DNA of 64,000 nucleotides from a virus (IMGVR_UViG_3300030329_005244), one strand, 5' to 3'; shown: positions 7,545 to 36,948, counted from the first letter of the stretch. Program-made: numbers and translations. Notes: a model not told the origin generated them from the sequence alone.

Positions 7545-9374
7545 TTAGGAAGTGGCGCCAGCCTCACCCATGATTCCGCGAACGATGACTAAGCCATACA
7601 TATCGGGACGAACCATCTTCTTGGCGTAGCGCGTCATGACGCCCTTACGGGGCACGAAGTCTTCCGGTCCAAAGATGGTGGGAGTGGTTTGCAGCGGCAC
7701 ATACGGTGCGTACACATAACCACTTTCGAGGAAGCTGCCTCCGCGACGACCGACGAGAACGACGGTACGGGGGAAGTAAGGATCGACAATAACGTCGAAC
7801 TTCTTCGAGAGGGAACCAACCTTCACAGAGCCAATGCTTCCCTTGTCGTCATCAGCGGTAACGCTTGCGCGGAAACCAGCCGTGAACTCAAGGATGTTAG
7901 CAACCTCGGGTCCGCAGACGACGAAGTTAGCTCCACCGCGAAGAGTCTTACGGTGAATCTGTGCAGAGACATCATTGATTGTCTCAGCAAGAGTCTCGTA
8001 CCACTCAGAGACGGTTCCGGTGAAGTCGGGAGCAGCCGAAGATGCGCCGATTTCCTGGCCAGTCTCGCGGTTGACGAAGAGTCCTGGGGCACGCGACCAG
8101 TAGTAAGTACCAGCGCTTGCACCTTGGATAAGATCAACGAGGATTTCGCGGTCGATTTCAAGAGCAATCTGCTCGGAGAGAATCGAGGTAAGCTCCACCT
8201 CTGCATCCAAGTTGTGATAGGCATTCAAGTCCTGTCCCAACTCAGGGGTCCACTTAGCCTTGAGCTTCTTCGTCATGGCGGTTACAGCAACACTGTCCAC
8301 CTTGATGTCGATCTCAGGGATGCGTGGGTTGTTCTCAAGACCCCAAACGGTGGTACCGAGAACGGAACCAAGTGCGGAACCATTCGTGAAGTTGTCATCG
8401 ATGGGGAACGACACGGTAAGGTTGCCAGAACCAGTAACAGAACCGAGAATACCGTTGTCCCTGCCCTCACCATGCATGGTGACGGAGCCACTAACACCTG
8501 CGAACACCATAGTGAACTTGTAACCAGCCACACTCGGATCTTGCGTAGAAGAACCAGAGGAGACAGTCGTCAGGCGACGGACAAGGTTAACGCTCTGAAG
8601 TCCAGCAGTGTCAGCAATACTATCAACACTAATGCCGATAAGATCTTGAATGTCGAGCTGGCTGAGTCCAGCAGAACCAGTCTGCTCCCAAACAGCACAG
8701 ACTGCACCAGAGAGGTCCACGTCATATCGCGTGAGCTTGTCGAGGGTGGACTGATTGGCAACCGAAAGAGGGTGAGCACCCTGTCCAGGCTGAGCACCAG
8801 CAACACCAGAGGCAATCAACACGAAACCAGCCAGACCAGTACCTGCGGGAGCAAGAGCGGTAGAACCAGTCGGCGACGAGTAACCGTTGTTCAGAGCGTA
8901 AGGACCCGATTCCGAACCACTAAAGATTCCAGAAAGATTCACACCACCAGTAACCTGGGATCCAACAACCTCGCCACCATACAGCGACTGCTCGCCAGGA
9001 CCGTAGCCAAGGCGGGGAAGACCAGCACCATCCGTCGAGGTGGTGAAGTCAAGGAAGAAGATGAGACCGCTGGGCAGGCTCATCGGCTGAACCGAAACGA
9101 GATCGTTTGCAATCAGCCCGGCAAAAACACGGCGAACGATGGGGAATGCGACGGCTGCGAAACCTTCGACATCACCACCAGACATGGTGCTTGCCTCACG
9201 GAGAAGTTCCTTTGCCTGATTCTCAAGCAGACGTGCCATCGAGCCCTTCTTGCGCTCGTCGCCAAGTCCTTCGAGAAGACCAGTTCGCTCCCACTTCTTC
9301 AACAGGGCAGAGCCCTCGGAGCGCATATCACGGTTAACGATACCTTCCGTCAACCTTTCTACAATACTAGACAT
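7545..9374 (-). CDS. gp23: Major capsid protein (T4 gp23-like)
   Basis: VSVQPMSLPSGLIFFLDF, KLKAKWTPELGQDLNAYHNLDAEVELTSILSEQIALEIDREI and GYVYAPYVPL…RKGVMTRYAK motifs; strong AGGAGG RBS. Confidence 0.97.
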   Translation of the reverse strand: MSSIVERLTEGIVNRDMRSEGSALLKKWERTGLLEGLGDERKKGSMARLLENQAKELLREASTMSGGDVEGFAAVAFPIVRRVFAGLIANDLVSVQPMSLPSGLIFFLDFTTSTDGAGLPRLGYGPGEQSLYGGEVVGSQVTGGVNLSGIFSGSESGPYALNNGYSSPTGSTALAPAGTGLAGFVLIASGVAGAQPGQGAHPLSVANQSTLDKLTRYDVDLSGAVCAVWEQTGSAGLSQLDIQDLIGISVDSIADTAGLQSVNLVRRLTTVSSGSSTQDPSVAGYKFTMVFAGVSGSVTMHGEGRDNGILGSVTGSGNLTVSFPIDDNFTNGSALGSVLGTTVWGLENNPRIPEIDIKVDSVAVTAMTKKLKAKWTPELGQDLNAYHNLDAEVELTSILSEQIALEIDREILVDLIQGASAGTYYWSRAPGLFVNRETGQEIGASSAAPDFTGTVSEWYETLAETINDVSAQIHRKTLRGGANFVVCGPEVANILEFTAGFRASVTADDDKGSIGSVKVGSLSKKFDVIVDPYFPRTVVLVGRRGGSFLESGYVYAPYVPLQTTPTIFGPEDFVPRKGVMTRYAKKMVRPDMYGLVIVRGIMGEAGATS

Positions 9375-16620: not shown

Positions 16621-16630
16621 TATAAATAGT
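16621..16630 (-). promoter_or_regulatory. Putative late promoter motif ACTATTTATA
   Basis: TATAAATAGT on +, directly after the bS21 stop. Confidence 0.65.
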
Positions 16631-16632
16631 CG

Positions 16633-16875
16633 CTACTTATTTCTATTACGCCTTTCTTGCGCTCTAATTCTTTTTTGTTCCTCCCGATATGCATTCCGTT
16701 TATAACGACGAATCTGCTCCTTCTTTACTACCGAAGGCTTTTTATAATATCTCTTCTCGTGAACTTCTTCAAGAATACGAGCCTTCTTGGTTTTTTTAGA
16801 AAAACGACGAATCATGCGTTCGACGTTGCCTTTGCACTCGCGTAGAGTTACTTTTACATTATATCCTTTTGCCAT
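16633..16875 (-). CDS. rpsU: Phage-encoded ribosomal protein bS21
   Basis: 80 aa and very basic. NVERMIRRFSKK…ILEEVHEKRYYKKPSVVKK matches the bS21 signature (E..LRRFK…R.YYEKPS..RK). Confidence 0.88.
   Translation of the reverse strand: MAKGYNVKVTLRECKGNVERMIRRFSKKTKKARILEEVHEKRYYKKPSVVKKEQIRRYKRNAYREEQKRIRAQERRNRNK

Positions 16876-18013: not shown

Positions 18014-18017
<4 letters not shown>
17304..18017 (-). CDS. Hypothetical protein, putative internal head protein (WSSF…ENWRKYL leader)
   Basis: Shares its N-terminal ~25 aa with 18014..18655; ATGA coupling. Confidence 0.65.
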
Positions 18018-18647
<630 letters not shown>

Positions 18648-18655
<8 letters not shown>

Positions 18656-19253
18656 CGCTCAATACCTCGTTAAGAAGTCTATTGATACGGTCTCCCTTTG
18701 TGAAAATGTTGGGCTTTAATTCTTTTGCCTCTTTCATCATGAAGGCGCCAGGCGTAGAAGGCTCGGAAACGAAGTCAAAGCAAATTAATTGGAAGTCGTC
18801 TTCAACAATCGAGCGTCCATTTTCTTCTCGCAACGAACCCATTCCTCTGGAAGAAATGCCCATCGTGCATTCATCATCCACCAAAGCGCGGAGGATTTTC
18901 CCCGCAGGAGTGTTGAGTACTCTGGCTTTTCCCATAACAGCATCGCCGTCCATCCAAATAGCGGTTATTCTATGGGAGGCATTGGCGAGATTAATCACTG
19001 CTGAATCAGGGTGATCCAATTCGCCTAATGCTCGGTTTTCTTTGATAAGTTTTTGATAGTTTGCAACTTCTCTCTTCATCACTTCAAAGGTGTAAGTCCG
19101 TCCATTTCCATTGACAGTATTGCATTGTTGGAGTTTGCCCGAAAGGATCATTCCGCCTTCGGCAACGAACTTCTTTTCGGATTCGGTGAGAAGGTCTTGG
19201 CAGACGCCTCCGTCGCAGAGGGCGTAGTATTCGCGTAATAAGTGTTTAGCCAT
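18648..19253 (-). CDS. gp21: Prohead protease (T4 gp21-like)
   Basis: NGNGRTY, ALGELDHP, GISSRGMGS and DFVSEPSTPGA catalytic motifs. Confidence 0.95.
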
Positions 19254-19259
19254 TGCTTC

Positions 19260-19934
19260 TTATTCCTCCCATACCCTTTTTTCGTCAGCCAATTCTTTGC
19301 GAGCCCATCGACGAGACTCCCAATATTCCCTTCCCAGGCGACCGGACGGCATATCCTCCGAACCATATTTTTCTTCATTGGCTTGGATACTGTCGTCGTG
19401 GGGTCCTCCCCACGGGTTTACTTCCATCTTGGCGTCGTCTACGCCATCACCTCGGGCATTATCAAGTCGGACGCTCCAATCGCCTCCGCCATAGCCGCCT
19501 TCATCGGACGCGCCGCGTTCATAATCGCCATAGCCTTCCTGCATCGTCTCATCTAAATCTTTGCGATAAAGGTAATGCATATAGCCCTTCATATATGCCC
19601 TATCTTCGGGGGTTGAGCGAGGCTGTGGACGATTAGGCTGGATGTTGTCCCAAGTGCCAGGCTTCCAAGTAGCCGTCGTATGATCAAAGTTGTCACGTTG
19701 TGCAAGTGCATCTTCTTTGCCTTGGTCGTAGTTAGAATCACCGGGACCAGGTTCTGGGGGAAGTTCGGGCGCTGCTGGTGGCGCTTCGGCGCGGTGGATG
19801 TGGTGAGGATCATTTCGGCGACGCTTATATCTCCGATACGGTCCGGTGGTCCACCACTCGCCATGAACCTCTTTCATCGTCCGCGAGATCTCTTCTGTGA
19901 TAATCTCAATCAATCGCTTCTTTGAAACTTTCAT
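19260..19934 (-). CDS. Hypothetical protein with MKVSKKRLIEIITEEI leader
   Basis: GGAG RBS; leader-family member with an otherwise low-complexity body. Confidence 0.7.
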   Translation of the reverse strand: MKVSKKRLIEIITEEISRTMKEVHGEWWTTGPYRRYKRRRNDPHHIHRAEAPPAAPELPPEPGPGDSNYDQGKEDALAQRDNFDHTTATWKPGTWDNIQPNRPQPRSTPEDRAYMKGYMHYLYRKDLDETMQEGYGDYERGASDEGGYGGGDWSVRLDNARGDGVDDAKMEVNPWGGPHDDSIQANEEKYGSEDMPSGRLGREYWESRRWARKELADEKRVWEE

Positions 19935-23758: not shown

Positions 23759-25348
23759 TCACTTTATAATCCACATGAACTCATCATAGCTTCGCTTCGC
23801 ATCATTAAGTTGGTCCACAAAGTCATTGTGTCTATCGTATCCCTTTTGTCCTTTAATTCTTGAATTCAAAACAGTTCTGGAGGTGACAATCGCATCAGCA
23901 AATGCCTTTTGATAGTTTAAATCTCGGGAATTTGCTTGAATGGCTGTGTCGCGAACCCAGCAAGCAATCGCCAGAGCCATAACTAAATCGTCATTGTAGC
24001 CCTTCATCGCCTGCGGCTTACCATTTTTCCAGATAAAAGTCTTTAATTCGTTTACTAACCTCGAAGAATACACCTTAATTAGTTTGTTTCTTACAAACTC
24101 CTCCAGTTTTGCGATGATAAGCGGGCGCGTCTTCATCGTGGTGGTAAAACCAGCAACTGTATTGGTGCGAACTTCTGCTTGATGCTGTTCGATGTATTGG
24201 TGCGTTGATTTTATAGAATAATAAATATTAGGATAACCATATTCTACAAGTTTGTCAAGAACGCTATAACCAATATTATTATTTTCTACCACGAGCATTG
24301 CATTTCCATACTCTCGCCCAATCTGGTTTAGCATCCCAGCATACATATCGAGCGTAGGTTTGCCCTGATATTCTCCGACGACAGCCAAAGTTTCTAACTC
24401 AATAATATGAAAAGTAGAGAAGTCTTCACCATCTCCACGAGCAACGTCAGCCACCATTAAATAATTGCACGAAGGATCACACTCCTGCCATATCCAAAAG
24501 TTTCTATCAAAGCCGGTACGATATTTGGGCTCTTGGCAGTTTTTAAGAAGCCAATCCATGTCATCAGGCTCAATAACAGTTTCTCCAGATGTATTAAAGC
24601 TACACAGCAGCTCCTGCGCAGCCTGTCGCTTGGACATGTTCTTGGTTTCTTTTCTAAACCAAGCCTCATCTCTCTCTGGGTGAACATCCCACGGAAGAGT
24701 CGTTAAGTGAAAATTATTTACCCCTGCTTGGGAGTCTACACAAGTTTTATGGAACCAGTTACCGACGCCCTTGGGCGTGGAAAGGGCTATACATCGCCCA
24801 CCTGTGCTCAGCGTAGAATACAAACCAATCCAGAGTTCGCCCATATTATCAATATGAGCCGCCTCGTCAAGAATCAAAAGAGACAGAGCCTCTGAACGCC
24901 CAGCGTCACCAGAAGTAGCGGCTGATTTAATAAACGAACCATTGTCCAATTCGAACGAAGTTCTGTTATCCACGATGATGGGCGAAATGTCTCGCAACCA
25001 CGGCGGAAGGCTTTTAACAATTCCCTTCACCTTTCGTGTCAGGTTGCCTGCGGTTCCGATCTTCGTCGCCATAACGAGCACAGCCTTGTCGCGATGGAAA
25101 AGCATTAGCCACGCAACATAGCCTGCAACAATGGTGGAAATACCAAGCTGCCGCGCTTTTAACACGGCATTGAATCGGTAATCATTAAAGTCGTTTAAAA
25201 GAGAATCCTGATAATCAAACGTGTCAAATAAAATCAACCCCTTGACGGGGTGAGAAATACGTGCATACGTTTTAAGGAAATACGCAGGGTCCTTACCGCA
25301 CTTCAGTATTTCCTTAATCTTTTTTTCTTTGGTGAGCTTAAAAGCCAT
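23759..25348 (-). CDS. terL: Terminase large subunit (gp17-like)
   Basis: KARQLGIST Walker A, LILDEAAH Walker B, STPKG motif, and RNase H-like DVARGDGED and NDDLVMALA. Confidence 0.96.
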   Translation of the reverse strand: MAFKLTKEKKIKEILKCGKDPAYFLKTYARISHPVKGLILFDTFDYQDSLLNDFNDYRFNAVLKARQLGISTIVAGYVAWLMLFHRDKAVLVMATKIGTAGNLTRKVKGIVKSLPPWLRDISPIIVDNRTSFELDNGSFIKSAATSGDAGRSEALSLLILDEAAHIDNMGELWIGLYSTLSTGGRCIALSTPKGVGNWFHKTCVDSQAGVNNFHLTTLPWDVHPERDEAWFRKETKNMSKRQAAQELLCSFNTSGETVIEPDDMDWLLKNCQEPKYRTGFDRNFWIWQECDPSCNYLMVADVARGDGEDFSTFHIIELETLAVVGEYQGKPTLDMYAGMLNQIGREYGNAMLVVENNNIGYSVLDKLVEYGYPNIYYSIKSTHQYIEQHQAEVRTNTVAGFTTTMKTRPLIIAKLEEFVRNKLIKVYSSRLVNELKTFIWKNGKPQAMKGYNDDLVMALAIACWVRDTAIQANSRDLNYQKAFADAIVTSRTVLNSRIKGQKGYDRHNDFVDQLNDAKRSYDEFMWIIK

Positions 25349-25354: not shown

Positions 25355-25630
25355 TTAATACCCAACGCTTGCTAAACTTGCGCCAGGAGTAATAAGCTGC
25401 CTGATAAGTTCTACCACTTCTTTATCATCGCCAATCTTTAACTTGGCGGCTATTTCTTCAGCAGTGCTGCCTTGTTTGGAGAGTATTTCTCCCGCATGAA
25501 TCAAGTTCAAAAGTTTGCCTTCGGGAGAGGTGTCGAACACAGGCTCGGTAGTTCCGAGTTCTTCGCCCGCAGCGATGTCCTCAATCTCTTCTTTAATAAT
25601 CTGCTTAAGTCTTGCCTTTGAAAGTTTCAT
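25355..25630 (-). CDS. Hypothetical protein with MKLSKARLKQIIKEEI leader
   Basis: Start at 25630 overlaps the upstream stop (ATGA); leader-family member. Confidence 0.7.
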   Translation of the reverse strand: MKLSKARLKQIIKEEIEDIAAGEELGTTEPVFDTSPEGKLLNLIHAGEILSKQGSTAEEIAAKLKIGDDKEVVELIRQLITPGASLASVGY

Positions 25631-26169: not shown

Positions 26170-26555
26170 TATTTTTCCTCAGTGTGCGTTGGTCGCCACC
26201 CTGTTTTCCAGCGCTCCTCTCGCCCCTCGACATGTTTTATATAACAAGTGTTACAACACTCGTATTTGATAATATAAATGTCATCGAGAGACTTTTGTGC
26301 AAAACTTCCACATAGTGGGCAATTTCGCACCGAGTCTCTGTTAAATAGTTTTTTTGAAATCTTAATGCCGTTAATGTCTACTTTTTCTTGCCACTCATCA
26401 TTTTTATGAGTCTTGGCATAAAAAGCCTTCATTTGCTTAAGATATTCTTTCTCTTTATTCTCGTCCCAATTTCCTTTTGGGTTCTGTATGGTTTCGTCTC
26501 CATACTTGTCGCTTATCGCCTGTTCAACCTTGGCGACATAATTTGGGTCGCTCAT
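26169..26555 (-). CDS. Hypothetical Zn-finger protein
   Basis: Start MSDPNY at 26555 (GGAG RBS); CPLC…CNTC motif. Confidence 0.65.
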   Translation of the reverse strand: MSDPNYVAKVEQAISDKYGDETIQNPKGNWDENKEKEYLKQMKAFYAKTHKNDEWQEKVDINGIKISKKLFNRDSVRNCPLCGSFAQKSLDDIYIIKYECCNTCYIKHVEGREERWKTGWRPTHTEEK

Positions 26556-26556
26556 G

Positions 26557-28137
26557 CTACTCTCCGCAATCACCCATTATAGCATACTCAATCTCAATTG
26601 TCGAGCCACCTTCTGGAATATGTGCTTTTTCAAACACAACAGAGTTGTCTGTGGAATTATAAGTCCAGCCAGTGGAAGTTACAACGCCATCAATCGTCAC
26701 AACAATTGTGCTCGCAACAGGATAATCTGTTAACTCAAACTCATCGAGGATTTTAACGGAATTTTCAGCCAGAGTTTCAAGGTGGCTTCCCCAATCTGCT
26801 GCACAGATGGAAAGAAAAGAACCGCCAGTATAACCAGTCAGTTCATAGTAGCCTCGACCTGCTGACGCACCACCGCATCCAGAGGGCATGTCGCCCGCTA
26901 TAGCGTGGGCAATAAAATCATCAGGGTCTGCCTTAAGGCTAGAAAAATAATTGTAGTAGTCAATTGCTTGTGCGCCTGATTGATCAGGTTCATCCGACAC
27001 AAAGATAATAACGAACTGCCCATCCTCCCTCATGAAGGAGCCCCCAGGAGCCGCCTCACCAGCGATGCTTGGATCGGTGGCACGGTAAGCCATCGCCATA
27101 CCAGCTTCAATGCCGGAACCGTTGGTTCCTGCTTGAACTTGCTGTGCAAAAACATCAGCAGCGTTGGGCGTTGTCTTCGTAATGATGTCTCCACGGAAGA
27201 AACCGCTATCGGTTGTGATGACGGCAATCTGCCAGTCCGTGTCGTTCTTCATAAATATCTGCATGAAGTTCGCAAAGTTGTTGGCCAACGATGCTTGCTC
27301 ATCTGCCATCGAGCAAGAGTTATCAACCACGAATAAGACATCGCTATAAGACTGAAGCGGTTGTTCGTAGGCGTCAAGAGTCTCGCCATAATACTTGCCT
27401 TGTCCCTCATAGAGAACTTTCTTTCGAGGAGTCAGCGGGTCATTGGAATCGATATAAGTTTGCGATTGGGTGAGCAAGTCATCTTCGGGAGCGAAAGTCA
27501 CATCGATTTCTAACTCTTCATCCATCGGAAGCGTCCAAGGGAGTGGTCCGTTATCGCCAGTTCGCAAGTCATAAATCCAGCCATATTCAGCATAGTCGAG
27601 ATTATCAATAATTAAATCTTCATTCCCGACATTGGAAATGGTGATGGGTTGTGTTGCGTCACAGCCAACATAATGGCTTCCAAAGGTATACTCCTCTGGT
27701 GTCACATCAATAACTGGAGCAGTTCCCTCGCCAAGAATCGGAACTTCCACAATGCCTTCGTCGGGATCATTCGACTCAATCGAAAGAGTCGATTCATACA
27801 CGTTCATTGTTAGCGGCGTGAAAGTCACCACCAACTGTGCTGTCGCCCCTTCGGGAAGCAATAGGCTGGAAGGTGTTGTCGTGGTGTATGTGGCTGTGTT
27901 CGACAGCGAAGCACCGACAATCTTTAAGTCGCCCTCACCCTCGTTCGTAATGTCAACGACTTGGGAAACTTCCGTTTCAGTTACAACCGACAGAGCGCCA
28001 AAGTCAATTGACGAGGGCTCAACAACAATATCGGGTATTCTATTATCCTCAATCCCGTCCCCGTCATCCGGGTGATAAACAAGTTCGTTTTCAGTACAAC
28101 CTAACAAAAAGAGCGATAAAAGAATATATTTCAACAT
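26557..28137 (-). CDS. Lipoprotein with two Ig-like (choice-of-anchor D/ASH-type) domains and a VWA domain
   Basis: Lipobox MLKYILLSLFLLG|C after a GGAGG RBS; two 'I.V.P..IDFG…ITN.G..DL.I…SNDP' repeats; DVLFVVDNSCSM MIDAS; IFVSDEPDQS. Confidence 0.85.
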   Translation of the reverse strand: MLKYILLSLFLLGCTENELVYHPDDGDGIEDNRIPDIVVEPSSIDFGALSVVTETEVSQVVDITNEGEGDLKIVGASLSNTATYTTTTPSSLLLPEGATAQLVVTFTPLTMNVYESTLSIESNDPDEGIVEVPILGEGTAPVIDVTPEEYTFGSHYVGCDATQPITISNVGNEDLIIDNLDYAEYGWIYDLRTGDNGPLPWTLPMDEELEIDVTFAPEDDLLTQSQTYIDSNDPLTPRKKVLYEGQGKYYGETLDAYEQPLQSYSDVLFVVDNSCSMADEQASLANNFANFMQIFMKNDTDWQIAVITTDSGFFRGDIITKTTPNAADVFAQQVQAGTNGSGIEAGMAMAYRATDPSIAGEAAPGGSFMREDGQFVIIFVSDEPDQSGAQAIDYYNYFSSLKADPDDFIAHAIAGDMPSGCGGASAGRGYYELTGYTGGSFLSICAADWGSHLETLAENSVKILDEFELTDYPVASTIVVTIDGVVTSTGWTYNSTDNSVVFEKAHIPEGGSTIEIEYAIMGDCGE

Positions 28138-28182
28138 TGGCAATGCCTCCTGTTCTAACTATGTCGCTAGAGCAAGAAACGC

Positions 28183-29001
28183 TTAGTTTTCGCCTTGGTT
28201 CATTAGATAATCGATGGCGCCCTGAACATGGTTCATCATTTCTCGCATTGCTTCATAGGCTTGCTGTTCGGTTTCGGCACCCCTCTGGGCGAGTTCTTTA
28301 ATTTGTGCGAAGGCTTTTCCTGGCTCGACAGACTCAACCGAATCAAGAGTTCGAACCATTCCAGTGTCGCCCTCTTCGCCTTCAAATTCCTCCGGATGCT
28401 CAAAGACATATCCCATCGCCTCTTCGGCAAATTCCATAATTTCTTCAAGAGCCCCCATCGGATCTTCTTGAATAGATGGATCGTCAAGAAGAACAAGAAC
28501 TTCCTGCATTGCCCCTACGGGCGAAAGGCCACCCTCATCGTCGGCAAGGTCCTGCACAAGTCGGCTGTAATCAGCTTCCTTGAGAACCTGGCGAATAAGG
28601 TGTTGAAGGCTTTGCTTCGTGAGTTTCATAGGTTTGTTTTCCTTTACTACTCTGAGATGTGTGCCTTTAGCCCTGGTGTTTTCTGGTGGCGGCTCCCATG
28701 GCTCAGCGACATTTATTGTGATGCGATAATATAGATCGTTGGTGTCTCCTCTACCTTCAGTCGCATCAATCCTAATGCTTTGCAAGTCGTAGTCGCCATA
28801 GTCATCCGTCGGCACAAGACCCAGATCTCGTAGAACATCATCAATCTTCTCCCTGAGTCGGCGCTGTCTATGATCATCCATCGGCACAAGGGGGTGCCAA
28901 GGTCTTGTACGCGATCCAGGTTCTCCTCGTTCGTTTTCTGTCACGGCTTTGCCGTATTCTTCTTTGATAATCTTTTTAAGGGCTGCTTTTGTAAGTTTCA
29001 T
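28183..29001 (-). CDS. Hypothetical two-module protein with two MK-leader motifs (29001 and 28629)
   Basis: MKLTKAALKKIIKEEY at 29001; internal MKLTKQSLQHLIRQVLKE at 28629 with its own AAGGA RBS. Confidence 0.7.
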   Translation of the reverse strand: MKLTKAALKKIIKEEYGKAVTENERGEPGSRTRPWHPLVPMDDHRQRRLREKIDDVLRDLGLVPTDDYGDYDLQSIRIDATEGRGDTNDLYYRITINVAEPWEPPPENTRAKGTHLRVVKENKPMKLTKQSLQHLIRQVLKEADYSRLVQDLADDEGGLSPVGAMQEVLVLLDDPSIQEDPMGALEEIMEFAEEAMGYVFEHPEEFEGEEGDTGMVRTLDSVESVEPGKAFAQIKELAQRGAETEQQAYEAMREMMNHVQGAIDYLMNQGEN

Positions 29002-29420
29002 TTTGTTAATTGGACAGCCAAGGCTGCTGTTCCTCCTACTCCTATTGCCACGCCAGCAGCGAACCACCAGCCAGGTTTTTTGGAAGAATACTTCTTTAAC
29101 TCTTCTTGAAGAGCAAGAATTTCTTTGTCCTTGTTCTCTCTAATTAGTTTGTACTCGTCATTAAGAGAATCATAATCAATTTTTAAATCTCTTATCTCCA
29201 ACTTGTATCTATTTGCTTGCAGTCCAAGTTGGTGACTCATATGCAAATCACACTCGCGACGAGCAGTTTCTCTAAAAATAATAATATCGGAACAGGCGTA
29301 CTTATCAAAAAGGAAGCCGTCAAAGGGGGCTGGTTCGTTCGCCTTAACAGACGAAAACGTGCCCACTTCTTCGGCTTCTGCTGTTCCTATAAAAAGTAAA
29401 AATAATAAGCTACTTAACAT
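28998..29420 (-). CDS. Secreted/membrane coiled-coil protein, possible spanin component
   Basis: Signal peptide (…AEA|), coiled coil and C-terminal transmembrane segment; overlaps the Rz-like gene. Confidence 0.5.
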   Translation of the reverse strand: MLSSLLFLLFIGTAEAEEVGTFSSVKANEPAPFDGFLFDKYACSDIIIFRETARRECDLHMSHQLGLQANRYKLEIRDLKIDYDSLNDEYKLIRENKDKEILALQEELKKYSSKKPGWWFAAGVAIGVGGTAALAVQLTK

Positions 29421-29787
29421 ATTCAAACCCGTAAAGAGTTTTTATCTTTTCTATGAGTTCGTCCTGATTGCCTGTGAAGTCTCCGATGTACTTTCTTCGG
29501 TTGACTGCTTTTAAGACTTCAAGTTGGTGTTTATTTTCTTCGTAGTTCTCGGTGAGTTCTTCAAGGGTTCTCCGATACTCGTCCAGCGACTCTTCTCTGC
29601 GAATGGCATCACGCTGTTGAATCTGCTTCATGCCTTCAATTTGGTTCTGAAGAGATGTCTGCGTGGTTTCGTATGCTCGTTCAAGCTTCTTGTAGTCGCT
29701 GTGTGTCTTTAACAAGAGCCCTCCCATCAAAAGGACAATCGTAATTTCCTTCCAGTTTGAGAGTGCAATTGATAAAGCTTTATTCAA
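29410..29787 (-). CDS. Putative inner-membrane spanin (Rz-like)
   Basis: N-terminal TM followed by a long coiled coil; follows the holin-like gene. Confidence 0.5.
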   Translation of the reverse strand: MNKALSIALSNWKEITIVLLMGGLLLKTHSDYKKLERAYETTQTSLQNQIEGMKQIQQRDAIRREESLDEYRRTLEELTENYEENKHQLEVLKAVNRRKYIGDFTGNQDELIEKIKTLYGFEYVK

Positions 29788-29978
29788 TGATCGAGCCCCT
29801 TGATTTTTGCGATGGCATCAATGACGCTCTGCCCACCAAGATACAGTGCGGAAACAATAATCCAGTCTCCACTTTCGAGGTGTCCCAAATACATCAAGCC
29901 CGTTGCGGTTAACCACACGAGCAACTTACGAGAAGTTAATTTTTCAAGACCCTTGTCAATTAGGGCTTTCTTTGCCAT
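29784..29978 (-). CDS. Putative holin
   Basis: 64 aa with a KLTSRKLL motif, two TM helices and a charged C-terminus. Confidence 0.55.
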   Translation of the reverse strand: MAKKALIDKGLEKLTSRKLLVWLTATGLMYLGHLESGDWIIVSALYLGGQSVIDAIAKIKGLDH

Positions 29979-30235
29979 CAGTAGTCTCCAGGGGCACCCA
30001 TATCGATAACAACCTCTTCTTCGCCTGCCGGAACCATATCAGTTCCACCAAGCGCAGCAGACAAACGCTGTGCGAGGTCTGCAAGTTCCGCCGCCAGAGC
30101 AACGGGATCCTCAGCAGCAGGTTCCCCAACGGGATCCATCTCTTCTGGTGCTGGTTCATCAGCCATCGGGCAACCGCCCTCGTTGGCCAACTCTTCCATA
30201 ATAATTTGTCGTAGTCTTTCTTTTGAGATTTTCAT
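29978..30235 (-). CDS. Small acidic protein with MKISKERLRQIIMEEL leader
   Basis: Leader followed by an Asp/Glu/Pro-rich, scaffold-like body. Confidence 0.7.
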   Translation of the reverse strand: MKISKERLRQIIMEELANEGGCPMADEPAPEEMDPVGEPAAEDPVALAAELADLAQRLSAALGGTDMVPAGEEEVVIDMGAPGDY

Positions 30236-33200
30236 TGTTTGATCCTTGCATAACTGCCTTTCTTATCAATCACAATCTGCATATCAACACAATCCTTGAG
30301 AGAATCCAGATGAGAAATCAAGAGAACATTTTTAAAATACACCTTAATTAGTTCTAAGATTCGAATAAAGCCTTCCATATTCTCTTCGTCTAATGCCGTC
30401 CCTGGCTCATCAAGCACAAAGAAGTCGCTCTTGGGAAGAGACGAGACAGACAGCAGAGCCAAACGAATAGCCATCGCAGCCATCGTCTTCTCCGCGCCAG
30501 ACGCCATCTCTATTGGGCGTCCCTCGTGCTTGGGATGCTTAATGAAGATGTTGAGTTTATTTTTATCTGTCTCGAAATAAATCTCAAAGTCCACAATGTT
30601 CGCCAAGACTTTCGCAATCTCCTGATTGATTACAGGGATTTTCTTTTTGATGATGTCGTAAGGGATTCCGTTGGGATGAACACATCGCATAAAGAGTTGG
30701 AAAGCTGAAAACTCTCTTCGAAGACTTTCGTGAGCCTCTCGTTGTTCTCGGATTGAATCGACTCGCTGTTCTGCCGACCCAACTCGTTTGTATAACACAA
30801 GCGTCTTCTTCTCACATTCCTTGATAGATTTCTCCTTGCTTTTAATCTCATTCTCATAGTCCCCCCTCCGTGTTAATAAGTTTTCGAGATTTTGAATCGC
30901 TTCTTTGTTCTCGTTATAAATGTCGATTTTCTCTTGAAGTCTTGACATGTCATGAACCAATTCAGTCACCCGGTGTCGGCTTGTCTGAACGGACAACTTC
31001 GATGATGAAATCTTTCGCTCCAAAGATGTTATCAATCCTTGAATCTTTTTATAATATTCAAACTTCTTTTCAACCTCGTCCTCGCCAAGGTTTGCAAGCG
31101 CGGCTGTTGCAGAAGTCATTTGAGAGTCAACCGTTTTCCGCTTGTCCACATGGACAATCGCATCGCGAATGAACCGACACGTCGGAAAGCTGTCTCCGCA
31201 CGGCACGCTATCAAGAAGTTTTTGTTTTTGTTCTATTCTCTTGATTTCTTCTGCGAGCCTTCCAATCTCCAATTTCTTTTCAACAATCTCCTCACGAGAT
31301 TGGGTGAGTTCTTCAACATCCAACATCGTCAGAAATGATTGAGACTTTTCAAGCTTCTCTTCTTGCGAAAGAATCTCTGCCTCTTGGCTGGAGATTGTTG
31401 CTTCATACGCAACACGCTCTCGTTTCTTCTTTGCGTGTTCTCGAATGAGCTTTTTGTGGTCGATCACCTCTGTTGGTGTCGCTTCAATGTCCCTTGTCAA
31501 ATCGTTGACATTTTGTCGTAATTCAATAATTTTTTTACGAAGGGAATCACATAGGGATTTATTTTTTTCTGAATCGGCTTTTGCCTCTGTGAGAAGAGCC
31601 ATCTCTTCCTGAATCTCGTTTTCGTATTCTCGACCCTCAACTTTGCGAAGGAGGGCACGAGTGTCCACAGATTCGTCCTTGGCAAGCTTAAACTTCTTGT
31701 CAAGAAACTCCAAGTCCAGAAACTTGGCGATGATTTCCTTTCGCTTGGTGGATCCCTCTTCAATGAAGGCTAATGCGCCGTGCTGTGACGCCAGAGAAGA
31801 CACGGCAAAATCATCCATGGTGCCGAAGTGCTTTCTAATTTTTGCGTCTGTCTGTGAGCGCGTGGTTCCGTTTAAGGATGTGGTCTCGCCAGTGAGCTTA
31901 TCGTGAACCATAAAGTCAAGGATTGTCTTGGCTTCGATTGTCTCTTCGCCTTTTAATTTCTTTGTGTATTTCTCGGCTGTTCTCTCGATTGTATACAGGC
32001 GCTCGCCGACTTCAATCTCTAGGGTTCCGCGTCCGTATCCTCGGTTCTGATTAATGACATTAATGTTCTTTCGTTCGTTCTTGCTCGTTGTGCCAAACAG
32101 AGTGAAAAGAAGAGCATCGATGACAGAACTCTTCCCAGAAAAGTTCTTTCCAAAGAGCCCAACAATCCCGCTAAGCCGATCAAAATCAATGGCATTTCCT
32201 TTCCCATAGTTAAAGAGGTTGTCCCATTTAAAAGACTTCAGTTTCCAATTAATGTTCCGTGCAATTTCCTCATTCTCTTCAACAATTTTATTAAAGTGTT
32301 GGTTGAGTCTAAAGACTTCTTCGAGAACTTCATCCTCTACTTCATAGTCCTTCAAATACTCCTTCATCAAATCTTCCTGAACCTGAACGTCTCGGAGGTT
32401 CTCGGTTTGAAGATTGTTCGCGAGGTTTCCGATGCTGCCATCGTCGCCGACAGAGCGATTCAAAAATGCAATGCTCTCGGGCTTAAACTTCAATTTCGCA
32501 TAGTCAATTGCCCTCTTCATCATGATGAATGAGAGGTTGTTGTGCGAGATTAAACGCAGGCGAGCCTTATCAGGAACTTGAAGGTTCTTTGGGAATTTAC
32601 CTCCTGATGTTAGCTCAATAGACATGAATGGTTTGGGATTTTTGTAGGCGATAGGCTTAATATCCCAGTCATCCTTGGTTCTTATGTCCCAGATGAGCAA
32701 ACCTTTGTCATCAGTCTCGCCGTGGTTCTGTTGAACAGTTGAGCCGCAGTACCAAATGCGCCCGTGCTTATCCAACGGCTGACGCCTGTGAATGTCGCCA
32801 AGCATAGCGAAATCGTACTCTTTAAAAATATCAATTTCATCATCTCCACGAGCCATCGTCCAGTCCAAATCTGTCTGGCAATTACTAATGGATCCGTGGT
32901 ACAAAGCGACGTTAATTTTGTCTTTATTTTTTGGGCTAGCCCATCTATCTCTATCAAAAATTGAAAGGACGTGAAGGGACACAGAGGGCGTCAGAGACAC
33001 CTCCCCGGAGTGCTTCAACATGTGCAAGTTCGGCAGCGAAAGAGCCTGCACAATTGGGCTCAATGCGTCCTGCCGATTTGAGTTGCGAAGGTTGCCGTCA
33101 TGGTTGCCCAGAATAATATACGTGGGGGCAATGGACGCCAAGGACTCAAAAAAGTTCGCACACATCTCAACGAATTCTGGTGAGATTTGTGTTTTTGTGT

Positions 33201-33339
33201 GAGCGATGTCGCCACAGTGGACGATAGCGTCAACCTTCTCTTCTCTTAGTGTTTCATAAAGTTGATCAAAGACGATTTGATACTCTTCATGGAATTTAAA
33301 ATTTCGAATGTGCGTGTCAGCCAAATGGGCTATTTTCAA
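30232..33339 (-). CDS. Fused SbcD/Mre11 nuclease - SbcC/Rad50 ATPase (T4 gp47-gp46-like)
   Basis: Phosphoesterase motifs ADTH, GD, GNHD and GDIH; Walker A GKNFSGKS; coiled coil; SGAEK signature; VLDEPGTALD; LISH. TTG start. Confidence 0.93.
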   Translation of the reverse strand: MKIAHLADTHIRNFKFHEEYQIVFDQLYETLREEKVDAIVHCGDIAHTKTQISPEFVEMCANFFESLASIAPTYIILGNHDGNLRNSNRQDALSPIVQALSLPNLHMLKHSGEVSLTPSVSLHVLSIFDRDRWASPKNKDKINVALYHGSISNCQTDLDWTMARGDDEIDIFKEYDFAMLGDIHRRQPLDKHGRIWYCGSTVQQNHGETDDKGLLIWDIRTKDDWDIKPIAYKNPKPFMSIELTSGGKFPKNLQVPDKARLRLISHNNLSFIMMKRAIDYAKLKFKPESIAFLNRSVGDDGSIGNLANNLQTENLRDVQVQEDLMKEYLKDYEVEDEVLEEVFRLNQHFNKIVEENEEIARNINWKLKSFKWDNLFNYGKGNAIDFDRLSGIVGLFGKNFSGKSSVIDALLFTLFGTTSKNERKNINVINQNRGYGRGTLEIEVGERLYTIERTAEKYTKKLKGEETIEAKTILDFMVHDKLTGETTSLNGTTRSQTDAKIRKHFGTMDDFAVSSLASQHGALAFIEEGSTKRKEIIAKFLDLEFLDKKFKLAKDESVDTRALLRKVEGREYENEIQEEMALLTEAKADSEKNKSLCDSLRKKIIELRQNVNDLTRDIEATPTEVIDHKKLIREHAKKKRERVAYEATISSQEAEILSQEEKLEKSQSFLTMLDVEELTQSREEIVEKKLEIGRLAEEIKRIEQKQKLLDSVPCGDSFPTCRFIRDAIVHVDKRKTVDSQMTSATAALANLGEDEVEKKFEYYKKIQGLITSLERKISSSKLSVQTSRHRVTELVHDMSRLQEKIDIYNENKEAIQNLENLLTRRGDYENEIKSKEKSIKECEKKTLVLYKRVGSAEQRVDSIREQREAHESLRREFSAFQLFMRCVHPNGIPYDIIKKKIPVINQEIAKVLANIVDFEIYFETDKNKLNIFIKHPKHEGRPIEMASGAEKTMAAMAIRLALLSVSSLPKSDFFVLDEPGTALDEENMEGFIRILELIKVYFKNVLLISHLDSLKDCVDMQIVIDKKGSYARIKQ

Positions 33340-33446
33340 AAAGCACCTCGAATAAGGGGTGTCAATCCGAATGACAAGTAGAACACCACTTCAAACACGA
33401 AAGCGAGCAGAAGGGTTTCCAACAGTTTGCAAAGAAGCTTTTTCAT
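33336..33446 (-). CDS. Small hydrophobic ORF MKKLLCKLLETLLLAFVFEVVFYLSFGLTPLIRGAF
   Basis: 36 aa with a GGAGG RBS; its TGA overlaps the TTG start of SbcDC. Confidence 0.6.
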   Translation of the reverse strand: MKKLLCKLLETLLLAFVFEVVFYLSFGLTPLIRGAF

Positions 33447-33461
33447 CTTACCTCCACAAGT

Positions 33462-33489
33462 AATATAACACACTCGGAGCAAGAAGCAA
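33462..33489 (-). promoter_or_regulatory. Sigma70-like promoter (TTGCTT-16nt-TATATT, extended TG)
   Basis: Minus strand ttTTGCTTcttgctccgagtgTGtTATATT in the only sizeable gap upstream of the recombination gene. Confidence 0.45.
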
Positions 33490-33509
33490 ACCTCTTATCG
33501 CTTGTCACC

Positions 33510-34754
33510 TTATCGTCGCGGAATGCCAGGGTTTTTTTCGCCCGCTATTCCCGCTTCGTATCCCATCGCAACCAATTCTGGTTGATGACTAAAGAACACC
33601 GACGTTTGATCTATTTCTCCACCTGCTTTACCCAACTCGTATCCGTGGTCTACCGCTTGCTTCTGTCCTCTCGGGGTATCAAAATGTTTTCTGATTTCTT
33701 CTTTGTCTATCTTGCCCTTAAACTCAACCATTTGAGCCTCATCTAGTCCTTCTAAGGAGTTTGTCAAGAAGGTAAACAGAATTGACCACTCGGGGGGCAA
33801 CACTGTTTTTACTTCGCCACCATCTTTAACTTTTATTTGAACTGATTCTGCGCCCGCTAAACCAACTTGCCCAATGCCCAAAAGTTCCCTATAAACAGAA
33901 AAGAGATATTTGACTTTATCTGGGGAGCCATCCAGATTCGCTTGAAGGTAATCGAACGCTTCTTGCCCAGTGTCGGATTTTAACTTTGGAATTGGCTTGT
34001 CCAGTAAAGCGCCGGGAGAAATGTAATCGGTGGCTGGCGCTCTCTTATATTTAACGAGCCTCTTCTCCATGCTGCCTTCTCCAAAAGAGTCGATAGAATC
34101 TATTTGTCCTTCAAAATTGTAGTTGTCTAAATAGTGATCTCCCTGGACTGCCATGTGTGGCCCTCCATAATCTCCGCGAACATCCTCAACAGATGCGTGG
34201 TGAGCGGGGCGTTCCAGGGCTGCTTGGGATTGAAGATAATCAAGAAAGGATGCTCCCGTACCAAGGGCGGCGGCAGTGCCAACCACAAGTCCGATCCTCT
34301 TAAGAAGATCCCTTCGGCTTTGCATTTTATAAGCGAGTTCAGCGCTAACATCTTCTTTCTCGATGCCGCGCTCTGTTGCTTTTAAGCCAATCAGCTTCAA
34401 TAATTGTGCGGCAAAACCGCCTTGGGCTTCGTCTAAAGTTCCAGAATCAAGTATATCAATGATTTCATCAGCAGCTTGTGCCGCCTCGTCATCCGGCGGA
34501 GATTGTTCGGCGAGCCAATCTGTCACGCCCTCTTTAACAACTTGCTGAATTATATATTCTTCAACCGTCTCGCGGATTATTTGAAGTAGGGCAGCCTCTG
34601 TGAGTTCCACGGCTTCATCTGTAGAGCCACTGTCGGGTTCCACAGAATAGAGTTTAGCCATATACGCTTTGGCTTTTTCTTCAGTTGAGGAGCAGCCTTT
34701 TTTTTCATCTGTATCTTTCCTATAGACGCACTTGCCTCGTCTTACATAAGGCAT
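33510..34754 (-). CDS. Hypothetical mosaic protein, putative internal head protein
   Basis: N-terminal MPY…KCV…GCS..EKAKAY module, then an internal leader-like LTEAALLQIIRETVEE, several L-x-E sites and one hydrophobic segment. Confidence 0.65.
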   Translation of the reverse strand: MPYVRRGKCVYRKDTDEKKGCSSTEEKAKAYMAKLYSVEPDSGSTDEAVELTEAALLQIIRETVEEYIIQQVVKEGVTDWLAEQSPPDDEAAQAADEIIDILDSGTLDEAQGGFAAQLLKLIGLKATERGIEKEDVSAELAYKMQSRRDLLKRIGLVVGTAAALGTGASFLDYLQSQAALERPAHHASVEDVRGDYGGPHMAVQGDHYLDNYNFEGQIDSIDSFGEGSMEKRLVKYKRAPATDYISPGALLDKPIPKLKSDTGQEAFDYLQANLDGSPDKVKYLFSVYRELLGIGQVGLAGAESVQIKVKDGGEVKTVLPPEWSILFTFLTNSLEGLDEAQMVEFKGKIDKEEIRKHFDTPRGQKQAVDHGYELGKAGGEIDQTSVFFSHQPELVAMGYEAGIAGEKNPGIPRR

Positions 34755-34756
34755 TA

Positions 34757-36004
34757 CTAGTCCTTCTTGCCTTTGCCCTTTGGGTAGACAAGACTGTCGC
34801 TGCTATTAACATTTGCTGCGAACGCTGCTTGTCGCTTGCGCTTCGTGGAGGAGCCACTTGCTGCCTTATCAACGCACGCCTGGGTCACATCTCCACCGCA
34901 ATACTTCGTGAATTCGCCTTCCGTGCCCTTCTCTTCAATATCTTCGGCTGCGTCTTGAGCCCAGTTCTCGTCTTTCTCTTCTTTCATGTGAACCCCCCTC
35001 ATTTGAAGTGCATCGCCCAACTCTCGCTGATACTGCTCTCCTTCGGGAGTGGTAGGCTGCCACTTTTCATAAACTGCCTCGGCGGCGCGCAACTTGCGCT
35101 TTGCTATTTCGGCTCCAAAATCGTGCATTCCAACATCGCCATGCCCTTCGGCAAGAGCCTTTTCAATTTCCTCAACCAAAATGGCTTTCAATTGTTTTCG
35201 GGTAATCTTCATTTTGTTTTCCTTTAATTCTTTTCCCCCCTTATGATAAGCGGGCATAGATTCTAATTCTTCGGCTTGAACTTTTAATGCTTTTTGTAGC
35301 AACGTGGGATCAAAGGCGGCGCACTTTCGGGCCTGGGCGCTTCCAAGCCCTCCACCTCCCATAATTTTATTATAAAGCCTAACTCTATCATATAGATGCT
35401 CAGACCCATAGCTGGTTTGTCCAATTTTGCCGCCTCGGCGCATTCTAAAAGATACGCAATCCATAGACATGTCAGTATAGCGACCGTTTTTTTCATCATA
35501 CTTTCCACATCTTTTTCCAAGTTCTCCCGACCAATCGTGAGCGGATCTATCGCTATCTAAATCCGAATAAATGTCTTTGTGTTCGCGATCTATTATTTTA
35601 TCCAAATGTCCTTGCAAGCTCATCCCACACGAAAGCATATCTTTATATTTACCACGATCCAATGTGTCAGAGGGGTCCATTCCCAACGCAATCATTGGCT
35701 CTGCTATTGCAGCGCGGCCTCGTTCAGTTTCTATTTGTTTTATAAAATTTGTACTAATTTTAAGACGTTGGCGCGAACTTTCGGCGTCTCGCCAATCATA
35801 TTGAGTTTTGGAAGAGCCTGGTCCTGCGCCCAAGCCTCCTTCCAGCCTTTCTGCTTTTCGGGCTATAGCGGCATATCGTGAATGGCTGGGGCCAATATCA
35901 AGGATTTCATAATCCTCGTCAGTCATTTCGTTGTAATTTTCGTAGAGAGCAGCACTAATCTCTTCTTTAAGAATAGCCTTCAACTGCGACTTTGAAATCT
36001 TCAT
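34757..36004 (-). CDS. Hypothetical multi-module protein with two MK-leader motifs (36004 and 35212)
   Basis: MKISKSQLKAILKEEI at 36004 (GAGG RBS); internal MKITRKQLKAILVEEI at 35212 (AAGGA RBS). Confidence 0.7.
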   Translation of the reverse strand: MKISKSQLKAILKEEISAALYENYNEMTDEDYEILDIGPSHSRYAAIARKAERLEGGLGAGPGSSKTQYDWRDAESSRQRLKISTNFIKQIETERGRAAIAEPMIALGMDPSDTLDRGKYKDMLSCGMSLQGHLDKIIDREHKDIYSDLDSDRSAHDWSGELGKRCGKYDEKNGRYTDMSMDCVSFRMRRGGKIGQTSYGSEHLYDRVRLYNKIMGGGGLGSAQARKCAAFDPTLLQKALKVQAEELESMPAYHKGGKELKENKMKITRKQLKAILVEEIEKALAEGHGDVGMHDFGAEIAKRKLRAAEAVYEKWQPTTPEGEQYQRELGDALQMRGVHMKEEKDENWAQDAAEDIEEKGTEGEFTKYCGGDVTQACVDKAASGSSTKRKRQAAFAANVNSSDSLVYPKGKGKKD

Positions 36005-36015
36005 TCGTGCGTTCC

Positions 36016-36948
36016 TCAAATTGCGGCAAGCAAATCTAACAATAAATAGTCCTCTTGATTGATAAAGGTTGCGTTTTGCTTTCTTTCTTGAAAGATGTGT
36101 TTCGGCATAGAACCAACATCTTCATATCCGTTCACATCAATCTTATAAAGTTCGATGTCATATTTGAGAAGGGTCTGAATTAATCTCCGTTCTTTCTTGG
36201 CTGCGTCAGGGTCGAGAGCCACAAAAACAGGAGTATCATTATAGACGATACTTCGCACCAGCTTGGAATTCTCTTGAAGCGATGAGCCAAGCAGGGGCAC
36301 AGAGTTGCCTGCGACGATGGCGTCAAAGGCTCCCTCAACGAGCGTCAGGTCATTCGTCCAGTCCACATACAGTTCGTTGAAGATAATATTTTTTGTTGCT
36401 CTCGGATTCTTGTATTTGTAAGAGTCGCCGTTATAAGAACGGGCGATGAAGAAGTTGGTATCACCATCATCATCAAACGATGGAATGATCACCCGGTTGC
36501 GATACTCGCCTTCAAAGCAATAACCAATCTTCCATCGCACCATATCGTCAAAAGTCACTCCGCGCGACTGGAGATAGTTAAATGCGTGCCTTCCTGTGGC
36601 TGATACCTTGCGAGAAGTTAGGGTGCGGAATTCTGCTGGGAGTTCAACTTTGCTCTTTGCATCTTCATTCCCGTCTTCACTGAAAAGATCGCAAAATCTT
36701 TCAAGCTCAGTTCCACCCGACAATTGTCGCCATTTCTGGAGTTGTGTATAAGAACCAAAACGCTTAACAAGCCGTACAATACTGCGCCCACGATAATCGC
36801 ACACCCAGCACTTAAACATATTTTTGTCAACGTTAACAGAAAGTTTGCGCTTGTGGTGAGAGCATTTCGGACACGCGAAAAGGAGTTCTTTATTCCTGTC
36901 GATGTAGTTTCCAAGTATCTCATGAAGGATTTTCTTCTTCTCTTTCAT
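36016..36948 (-). CDS. dnaG: DNA primase (DnaG/gp61-like)
   Basis: Zn finger CPKC…H…CWVC; YLQSRG; RVIIP; TOPRIM LVEGAFDAI and LDPDA. Confidence 0.92.
   Translation of the reverse strand: MKEKKKILHEILGNYIDRNKELLFACPKCSHHKRKLSVNVDKNMFKCWVCDYRGRSIVRLVKRFGSYTQLQKWRQLSGGTELERFCDLFSEDGNEDAKSKVELPAEFRTLTSRKVSATGRHAFNYLQSRGVTFDDMVRWKIGYCFEGEYRNRVIIPSFDDDGDTNFFIARSYNGDSYKYKNPRATKNIIFNELYVDWTNDLTLVEGAFDAIVAGNSVPLLGSSLQENSKLVRSIVYNDTPVFVALDPDAAKKERRLIQTLLKYDIELYKIDVNGYEDVGSMPKHIFQERKQNATFINQEDYLLLDLLAAI
36043..36050 (-). promoter_or_regulatory. Putative late promoter motif inside the primase 3' end
   Basis: ATAAATAGT on +, 39 nt upstream of the leader-bearing gene at 36004. Confidence 0.55.

Follow-up and report, generated by a model that had tools for sequence, protein, structure and literature searches.

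What is one 14-base sequence doing in front of two start codons that both lie inside longer genes? This question is raised by a 64,000-nucleotide stretch of viral DNA (IMGVR_UViG_3300030329_005244; this whole stretch is called the window below), whose source is an uncultured marine T4-like ("Far-T4") myophage and whose genes all lie on the minus strand. Two open reading frames (ORFs) of the window, ORF A (29001..28183, minus strand; 272 residues from its leader ATG) and ORF B (36004..34757, minus strand; 415 residues), are organized as leader-module-leader-module chains, in which a short leader peptide opens the protein and recurs in its interior at a second ATG, located at 28629 in ORF A and at 35212 in ORF B. 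We favor, with a probability of roughly 0.6 for the explanation as a whole, that both ORFs are in-frame fusions of leader-tagged genes, that the 14-mer is the ribosome site retained from the downstream gene, that the downstream protein would be obtained by internal starting as well as by cleavage, and that such modules move between related phages.

The 14-mer TAAAGGAAAACAAA is present in exactly two copies in the window, both on the gene strand, against a chance expectation of 0.05. At junction A (28646..28633, minus strand) it is followed by cct and then by ATG 28629, leaving a gap of 3 nucleotides, and at junction B (35226..35213, minus strand) ATG 35212 follows directly, with a gap of 0 nucleotides. 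The distance from the AAGGA Shine-Dalgarno (SD) element to the ATG is 10 nucleotides in junction A and 7 nucleotides in junction B. Both ATGs are in frame with the surrounding ORF, which is free of stops for 170 and 303 codons upstream of ATG 28629 and ATG 35212, respectively; each junction thus presents an in-frame ATG with an SD at working distance inside a longer ORF, as in a nested gene. In-frame translation of the 14-mer gives V-K-E-N-K at junction A and L-K-E-N-K at junction B, and the + 1 frame runs into TAG and TAA at the former and into TAA at the latter. The initial annotation of this DNA, which had described one 14-mer ahead of both internal ATGs, an AAGGA SD at usable spacing and an encoded [VL]-K-E-N-K, was accurate on all of these features; the additional copies whose existence it had left open are absent from the window up to one mismatch. 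The RNA around both internal ATGs is unstructured in folds (z = -0.4 and +0.2), and a scan of positions 28000-36200 for sigma-70 promoters and terminators gave nothing above chance. Near junction B, a run of six G and four A (G6A4; 35231..35240, minus strand) lies 18-28 nucleotides upstream of ATG 35212. With one base fewer in this run, the upstream part of ORF B would stop at the TAA of the 14-mer.

The fusions themselves are real and not assembly errors, since independent assemblies agree at the junctions without indels. Contigs of samples X1 and X2, which come from different studies, match positions 33184-36040 base for base and without gaps, at 30-38x depth, and junction A (28633-28646) is bridged gap-free by contigs of X1, X2 and X4. 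A TARA scaffold (L082) is 99.89% identical over 26415-31879, likewise with no gaps. The exact 415-residue product of ORF B is encoded on 6 contigs, and its cluster is present in six databases. No length variants of the G6A4 run were seen among the assemblies.

The origin of the internal ATGs becomes clearer when the four modules are compared with their homologues. ORF A consists of module A1 (28630..29001, minus strand; 124 residues, N-terminal leader MKLTKAALKKIIKEE) and module A2 (28183..28629, minus strand; 148 residues, divergent leader MKLTKQSLQHLIRQVLKE). ORF B consists of module B1 (35213..36004, minus strand; 264 residues, leader MKISKSQLKAILKEE) and module B2 (34757..35212, minus strand; 151 residues, leader MKITRKQLKAILVEE), the last with a conserved C-terminal TEGEFTKYC...AAFAAN domain. 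Homologues P0007, P0013, P0015, P0017 and P0019 were compared as proteins. Both downstream modules are found as stand-alone genes in relatives, a possibility the initial annotation had raised. For A2, residues 1-148 of P0013 (148 residues, 86% identity) align to residues 125-272 of ORF A, P0016 aligns in the same way, starting at the A2 Met, and P0014 is a short stand-alone protein too. For B2, at least 10 stand-alone homologue clusters (93-166 residues) start at the leader Met, at the position of ATG 35212 (Val/GTG in one). Because the stand-alone homologues of A2 and B2 start at the same Met, the internal ATGs 28629 and 35212 are, as judged from these alignments, the ancestral gene starts of A2 and B2.

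The upstream modules display a different picture in each case. A1 homologues P0015, P0017 and P0019 share 35-41% identity with the A1 segment of the window, and in all four lineages (these three and the window) the A1 family runs in frame into a leader, with a different module behind it each time. The junction reads AKGTHLxxV[KR]ENK in three of the four and IKNENK in P0019; in P0015 the E-N-K is present and the Met of the internal leader is missing. B1 homologues P0002-P0006 (320-371 residues) have a different C-terminal tail of their own and are not fused to B2. The modules are thus not locked into one fused order, an arrangement that would have spoken against the initial annotation. In L002, a B1 homologue whose DNA was read, the gene ends in ...GGAGAACAAACAATGA and the next, separate leader gene starts there in an ATGA stop/start overlap; at the same point the window reads ...GGAAAACAAAATGA, so that a shift of 1-2 nucleotides distinguishes the overlap from the fusion.

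Two further observations concern these modules. The B1 homologues contain a second leader-like motif in truncated form, GVDVxQIIKEEL (xQIIKEEL; P0002-P0006 and L002:4480-4537), about 20 residues from their stop and just before the next leader gene; it may have been left behind by insertion of a cassette, or it may act in processing or targeting at the C-terminus. The C-terminal part of B2 (window 34757-34960) belongs to a domain of about 65 residues, WAQDAAxDIEKKGTEGEFTKYCGGDVTQACVDKAA...KRKRQAAFAAN...YPK, which is widespread behind the leader (P0008, P0041, P0047 and others) with linkers of 0-70 residues; no Pfam family was found for it, and it has weak tblastn matches on "transmembrane proteins" of crAss-like phages. 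More generally, a PHROGs and Pfam search of all leader proteins and modules returned no family, and an ESM Atlas search with B1 gave nothing above 0.78. An AlphaFold2 model of ORF B built from 6 sequences reached a mean pLDDT (predicted local distance difference test) of 53. Searching public phages with ORF B by tblastn produced only the weak C-terminal matches in crAss-like phages, no relatives emerged from IMG/VR when ORF A or ORF B was used as a single-protein query, and neither viral nor metagenome contigs contained a match to a degenerate DNA pattern of the B2 leader. A profile of the B1 family recovered the L002 contig alone; that of the A1 module had no match in viral contigs and, among metagenome contigs, only the near-identical TARA scaffold.

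The leader offers a wider frame for this comparison. A survey with a hidden Markov model (HMM) of the leader, covering the window and 80 related IMG/VR loci, yielded 241-250 distinct matches, all on the gene strand, with a best opposite-strand score of 6.3 bits. The consensus MKITKSQLKQIIKEE describes an amphipathic N-terminal peptide of 15 residues ending in [IL]-x-E-E. Over 165 distinct sites the consensus is MKITKSQLKQIIKEEL, with I11, I12, E14 and E15 each present in 87-94% (I12 in 152/165, E14 in 155/165). The window holds eight gene-strand matches (7.8-24.9 bits). Seven minus-strand ATGs (36004, 35212, 30235, 29001, 28629, 25630 and 19934) open with MK[ILV][ST][KR]xxLxx[IL][IL], usually followed by xEE, and the eighth match is a copy lacking Met at 34610, detected by the HMM inside the next ORF after B. 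The [IL]-x-E motif occupies residues 12-14 in six of the seven leaders that start with Met and residues 16-18 in A2. The leader is conserved as protein and not as DNA, with 18-36 of 45 nucleotides identical between window copies.

Behind this leader the cargo bodies are unrelated and mostly belong to no known family. A set of 52 diverse leader-bearing proteins from the related loci includes three with pentapeptide repeats (E as low as 6e-81) and a single GNAT acetyltransferase. Pentapeptide proteins are able to mimic DNA, a property that would be fitting for anti-defense cargo that is injected. Apart from ORFs A and B, the window contains three stand-alone leader genes on the minus strand: one at 29978..30235 (85 residues, MKISKERLRQIIMEE), one at 25355..25630 (91 residues, MKLSKARLKQIIKEE) just ahead of the large terminase gene, and one at 19260..19934 (224 residues, MKVSKKRLIEIITEE) directly upstream of the prohead protease gene. 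A tblastn search of public phages with a 22-residue consensus leader gave no match, and a literature search for the leader strings found no paper.

The leader survey also provides the setting in which the 14-mer can be understood. The sequence that precedes leader ATGs is A-rich in the family consensus, which has GGAG at about -13..-9 and AAA ahead of the start codon. An SD 4-mer at -18..-5 relative to the leader start accompanies 67% of N-terminal leaders and 7 of the 9 internal leaders that have a start codon, as compared with 1 of the 7 internal leaders that have none and 8.5% of random internal codons (binomial p = 1e-6). Such retention at internal leaders fits functional internal starts or recent fusions, either one. 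As the internal ATGs are, by homology, ancestral gene starts, the 14-mer is on this sequence evidence the downstream gene's own SD (AAGGA) with its A-rich spacer, retained before the ancestral start codon. Regarding the identity of the two copies, 14 or more shared bases occur in 0.27% of pairs of non-orthologous leader upstream regions, which corresponds to about 0.06 expected over the 21 pairs of the window. Sharing the 14-mer at two junctions is more than chance, not overwhelmingly so. We estimate that some repeated 14-mer anywhere in 64 kb, indeed several pairs, is expected by chance; it is the position that matters.

This origin also bears on the peptide encoded by the junctions. Read in that frame, nTAAAGGAA automatically gives [LIV]-K-E, and the UAA belongs to the extended SD UAAGGAGG; since both follow from the extended SD, no separate reason has to be sought for the junction "cleavage site" or for the out-of-frame stop. 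Module borders carry L-K-E or V-K-E plus the [IL]-x-E of the leader, the former being a short motif partly forced by the SD codons. Because each leader has an [IL]-x-E site of its own, a cut at the junction is not needed for separation of the modules. For the gp21-type cleavage site that the initial annotation read into [VL]-K-E-N-K, the case is weaker: L-K-E at junction B fits the T4 [LI]-x-E rule, V-K-E at junction A lies outside it, and the reading is imposed by the SD codons in any case.

Chains of leader-tagged modules, which the initial annotation had likened to polyproteins, recur in the relatives. Further two-leader ORFs are found in L005/L039, L020, L025, L044, L078 (twice), P0007 and P0009. 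The window itself has a third chain in the ORF after B (33510..34754, minus strand; 414 residues), in which a 48-residue MPYVRRGKC module is followed by the leader-like motif without Met, VELTEAALLQIIRE, from 34610, and then by about 350 residues of cargo. The MPYVRRGKC N-terminal module is shared by L022, L027, L031, L032, L050 and L052, and in L022 the reading frame continues from it through ...LTKENKT into a Met leader that has an SD. Internal leaders devoid of Met score as high as 20-27 bits, indicating that the motif is maintained where it is not N-terminal. Their retention is easier to reconcile with a role in proteolysis or core binding than with a signal requiring a free N-terminus.

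Variant contigs, placed at ≥ 88% likeness and representing relatives or strains, display the exchange of modules. In contigs of X2 and X5, position 35215 is joined to 36013 with 5 other letters between; B1 is absent, and B2 lies directly behind the primase gene, which is also encoded in the window, upstream of ORF B. A joint from 28194 to 28998 leaves the entire ORF A absent or replaced. Two further joints flank the leader at 34610: one, from 34620 to 36013, has its end about 3 codons before this leader, and the other, from 33338 to 34564, has its end just after it. In a variant contig of X5 that is about 93% identical in A1, the 14-mer is followed by a leader like that of A1 in place of that of A2. 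The breakpoints of module exchange lie at leader or junction edges. The whole stretch 28194-36013 between the primase and structural genes shows strong strain variation, with whole modules present, absent or replaced (contigs of X1, X2, X4 and X5).

These variants also reveal how far the 14-mer is conserved. Only its last AAA is kept where B2 stands alone, P0007 has EDKK before an identical leader, and the core GGARAAYAA occurs at 7 of 250 leader sites. The suggestion of the initial annotation that the 14-mer serves as microhomology for module shuffling is not supported by this pattern, and the lack of conservation is an outcome that it had itself named as unfavorable. Exchange likely proceeds by recombination within the leader-coding repeat of about 45 nucleotides, which offers a likelier homology than the 14-mer. 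The latter is best read as a retained ribosome-binding site and not as a dedicated recombination element or a conserved dual-purpose element.

A function for the leader is suggested by the T4 head. Mullaney and Black are said to have described, in 1996, a capsid-targeting sequence (CTS) on the T4 internal proteins IPI, IPII, IPIII and Alt. The CTS is a propeptide of 10 residues that loads unrelated proteins (IPI-III, Alt) into the prohead and is removed by gp21, which cuts after Glu (PMC9026906, PMC9958956, PMC5694885); proteases of the gp21 family cut after Glu at sites of the [IL]-x-E type (PMC5694885, PMC9026906). The phage studied here encodes such an enzyme in its head module, a prohead core serine protease of the T4 gp21 family (18648..19253, minus strand; Peptidase_S77 E 5.5e-32, phrog_207 E 3.6e-55). 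Further likenesses to the T4 system are a short N-terminal propeptide shared by unrelated, poorly conserved proteins, its hydrophobic-x-Glu end carrying the protease motif, and a cargo set that varies between relatives. The major capsid protein (7545..9374, minus strand; Pfam Gp23 E 4.5e-71) has in its N-terminal region ...AKELLRE/AST, which resembles KQIIKE/E of the leader and is, by its sequence, a probable maturation site. By analogy with T4, we consider that the leader probably loads proteins into the prohead core and that the gp21-family protease then cuts after Glu. The relation of the leader to the CTS is analogous, not demonstrably homologous: on inspection against MKTYQEFIAE, MKITKSQLKQIIKEE shares only MK and the terminal I-x-E. 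The leader is also longer than the CTS, at 15 residues, and far more numerous, with about 250 distinct copies in 80 loci. Unlike the CTS, it occurs internally as well, linking modules into two-leader chains, sometimes without Met, and its packaging and cleavage are proposed here from genes.

Taken together, the favored explanation can be phrased as follows. The phage tags a variable set of unrelated small proteins with the 15-residue leader, and the S77 protease (18648-19253) would cut after the Glu of its [IL]-x-E. In each of the two ORFs, two adjacent leader-tagged genes have fused in frame, the upstream gene, lacking a stop, reading through the junction into the next. The downstream module would be produced by internal initiation at 28629 or 35212 and also within the fusion. 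That the fusion is tolerated would be explained by the internal leader, whose protease site still allows the modules to be parted inside the capsid, and modules would be gained, lost and replaced by recombination in the repeated leader-coding DNA. The second protein, as far as its sequence tells, is probably still made separately or cut out of the fusion.

Several points weigh against this explanation. Both initiation at the internal ATGs and cleavage are proposals that we infer from the genes, and the leader, as noted, has no sequence similarity to the T4 CTS. The P0015 junction devoid of Met indicates that internal initiation is not universal. The stand-alone start of P0013 was judged from the protein on a 799-bp contig and not from upstream DNA. 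The identity of 14 bases contrasts with leader DNA that is only about 44% identical (20/45 nucleotides), and a loose ribosome-site consensus explains it incompletely; the majority of leader sites have 5-7 mismatches to the 14-mer. Finally, E-N-K before a leader is also found in L022, L035, P0015, P0017 and P0019, which hints at an extra constraint on the peptide. A peptide constraint atop the ribosome site is possible, as is recombinational spread of one junction type.

The most direct competitor would be an obligate polyprotein, translated from the first ATG alone, whose junction was selected as a K-E-N-K linker that includes [LV]-K-E as a protease site and whose SD appearance is a by-product. 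It would accommodate the A1 homologues, which at 35-41% identity keep an in-frame V[KR]ENK or NENK, in P0015 even without the Met, as well as the internal leaders of relatives that possess neither Met nor SD. It also draws on the GGARAAYAA core, which lies at in-frame junctions in 4 of its 7 sites, all reading E-N-K (the two of the window, L022 and L035; Fisher p = 0.003), and on the agreement of L-K-E with the T4 rule. The enrichment falls to p = 0.08, however, once the window's own sites are left out, and V-K-E is not a canonical gp21 site. In most relatives, moreover, A2 and B2 are ordinary stand-alone genes beginning at exactly this ATG, so that SD and ATG are ancestral start signals, the internal leaders with an ATG have an SD at the rate of free genes, and the 14-mer is missing from the variant with B2 alone and from P0007. 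We consider an obligate polyprotein improbable. A poor chance is likewise given to the idea that the fusions are neutral or mildly harmful accidents, in which small indels in the A-rich spacer or near the G6A4 run removed a stop, the fusions have no role and the shared 14-mer is a coincidence of two strong ribosome sites. Such an event would be easy, as leader genes start with ATGA and 1-2 nucleotides convert an overlap to a fusion, as the comparison with L002 illustrates, or a single base in the G6A4 run decides whether B1 ends at the TAA of the 14-mer; the fusion of B1 to B2 is found in this lineage only, and a probability of about 0.06 for a shared 14-mer among the window pairs is not negligible. 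Accidents do not readily explain why the A1 family is in frame with the next leader in four of four lineages, why chains recur across many relatives, or why several samples, at 30-38x depth, show both fusions as fixed and no length variants.

Programmed frameshifting or slippage would free the upstream module by a + 1 shift ending at TAA (B) or TAG-TAA (A), with in-frame reading giving the fusion. The + 1-frame stops at both junctions are compatible with it, and junction B offers G-GGA-AAA, a heptamer of the -1 slippery type, together with the G6A4 run, 18-28 nucleotides upstream of the ATG. That heptamer, however, shifts to -1 and not into the frame of the TAA, junction A has no slippery run, the UAA is accounted for by the extended SD, and the out-of-frame stops of relatives lie in differing frames. 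No stimulatory structure was found downstream in the folds, so that neither junction combines a slippery site with such a structure, and we regard frameshifting as very improbable indeed. A different alternative concerns the leader and not the junction: it might mark proteins for something else, for example recognition by a modifying enzyme, oligomerization or enhancement of translation, in which case the retained ribosome site would stand and proteolytic separation would not. The missing likeness to the T4 CTS and the absence of known families among most cargo bodies leave room for this idea, which we nevertheless find doubtful. The leader always ends in hydrophobic-x-Glu, as do sites of the gp21 family, the S77 protease is encoded in the same genomes with one leader gene directly beside it, the capsid protein has a similar KELLRE/A site, and the motif is conserved at the level of protein and not of DNA; a candidate modifying enzyme was not seen in the window.

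A more ambitious proposal goes beyond the retained ribosome site that we favor. The junction could be a selected, doubly coded "plug", a ribosome-binding site that is at the same time an E-N-K linker cuttable by the protease, placed before a targeting leader, which would allow any cassette to stand behind any other with its cargo freed by two routes. With recombination in leader DNA this would amount to a plug-and-play exchange of capsid-delivered proteins. We offer this version tentatively and think it unlikely.

Internal starts within head genes have precedents. In phage lambda, C and Nu3 are nested in-frame genes with an internal start in the head morphogenesis operon. T4 gene 21 has a second start at Met45 (PMC9026906). 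The two junctions resemble these cases in that an SD-bearing ATG lies in frame inside a longer ORF, making a full-length and a C-terminal protein possible. They differ in that the internal start is, as the stand-alone homologues indicate, the leftover of a once independent gene and the parts are unrelated modules instead of a protease/scaffold pair. Giant phages offer a second parallel, as head and ejection proteins of phiKZ, 201phi2-1 and SPN3US are multiply cleaved after Glu by a gp21-related protease (PMC5694885, PMC9026906). Short cleavage motifs, redundant propeptide sites and many processed internal head proteins are common features. The giant-phage motifs are S/A/G-x-E or A-x-E, however, and the propeptides are long instead of a fixed shared leader. 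From giant phages we know of no report of module chains in which a repeated leader forms the joints and ribosome sites are retained.

Other features of the window place these genes in their genomic context. Also encoded on the minus strand are a T4-type portal (21729-23750) and the large terminase (23759-25348). Another N-terminal motif, WSSFxxQxLxxENWRxYLxE, with [IL]-x-E sites, is common to the two genes that follow the protease (17304-18655) and may be a second class of propeptide. An Mre11/SbcD-like phosphoesterase and a Rad50/SbcC-like ATPase are fused in one 1035-residue ORF (30232-33339), which has 50-61% identity to counterparts in at least 327 IMG/VR stretches. The sequence TAAATAGT (ACTATTTA on the gene strand) occurs 15 times where 2.3 would be expected, frequently ahead of genes, at plus-strand positions 1899, 4638, 6380, 10659, 11855, 16623, 20201, 26342, 34128, 36043, 41048, 41445, 60384, 60707 and 63886. 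One copy lies 39 nucleotides upstream of the B1 ATG, within the replication-gene block, and none lies before the internal ATGs. It may be a phage promoter motif.

Related stretches number at least 327 in IMG/VR, on contigs that reach about 200 kb, and relatives of about 200 kb are found in many ocean metagenomes. Among cultured phages, the nearest capsid proteins belong to Flavobacterium phage vB_FspM_immuto (47% identity), Microcystis phage Mel-JY01 and Rhodothermus phage RM378. The first of these has leader-type genes as well (L084, vB_FspM_immuto_2-6A; 6287-7045 and 16454-16675): gp080 starts with MKKSQLRQIIKEAL (17.6 bits), and gp072, located between the portal and protease genes, with MKKSQIVKAVQEVLEE. 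This cultured relative is an experimental handle on the system. For annotation the locus is a warning, as long "hypothetical" ORFs in these phages can conceal independent genes with starts of their own. The leader could, in addition, serve as a tag for loading foreign proteins into heads of phages that do not infect E. coli. The fused genes illustrate how cargo genes evolve, with adjacent cassettes merging and separating at a boundary of ribosome site and leader and probably neither product being lost. If the leader is a capsid-loading tag, the proteins injected by this large family of abundant marine phages form an exchangeable set, extending the idea of the T4 internal proteins.

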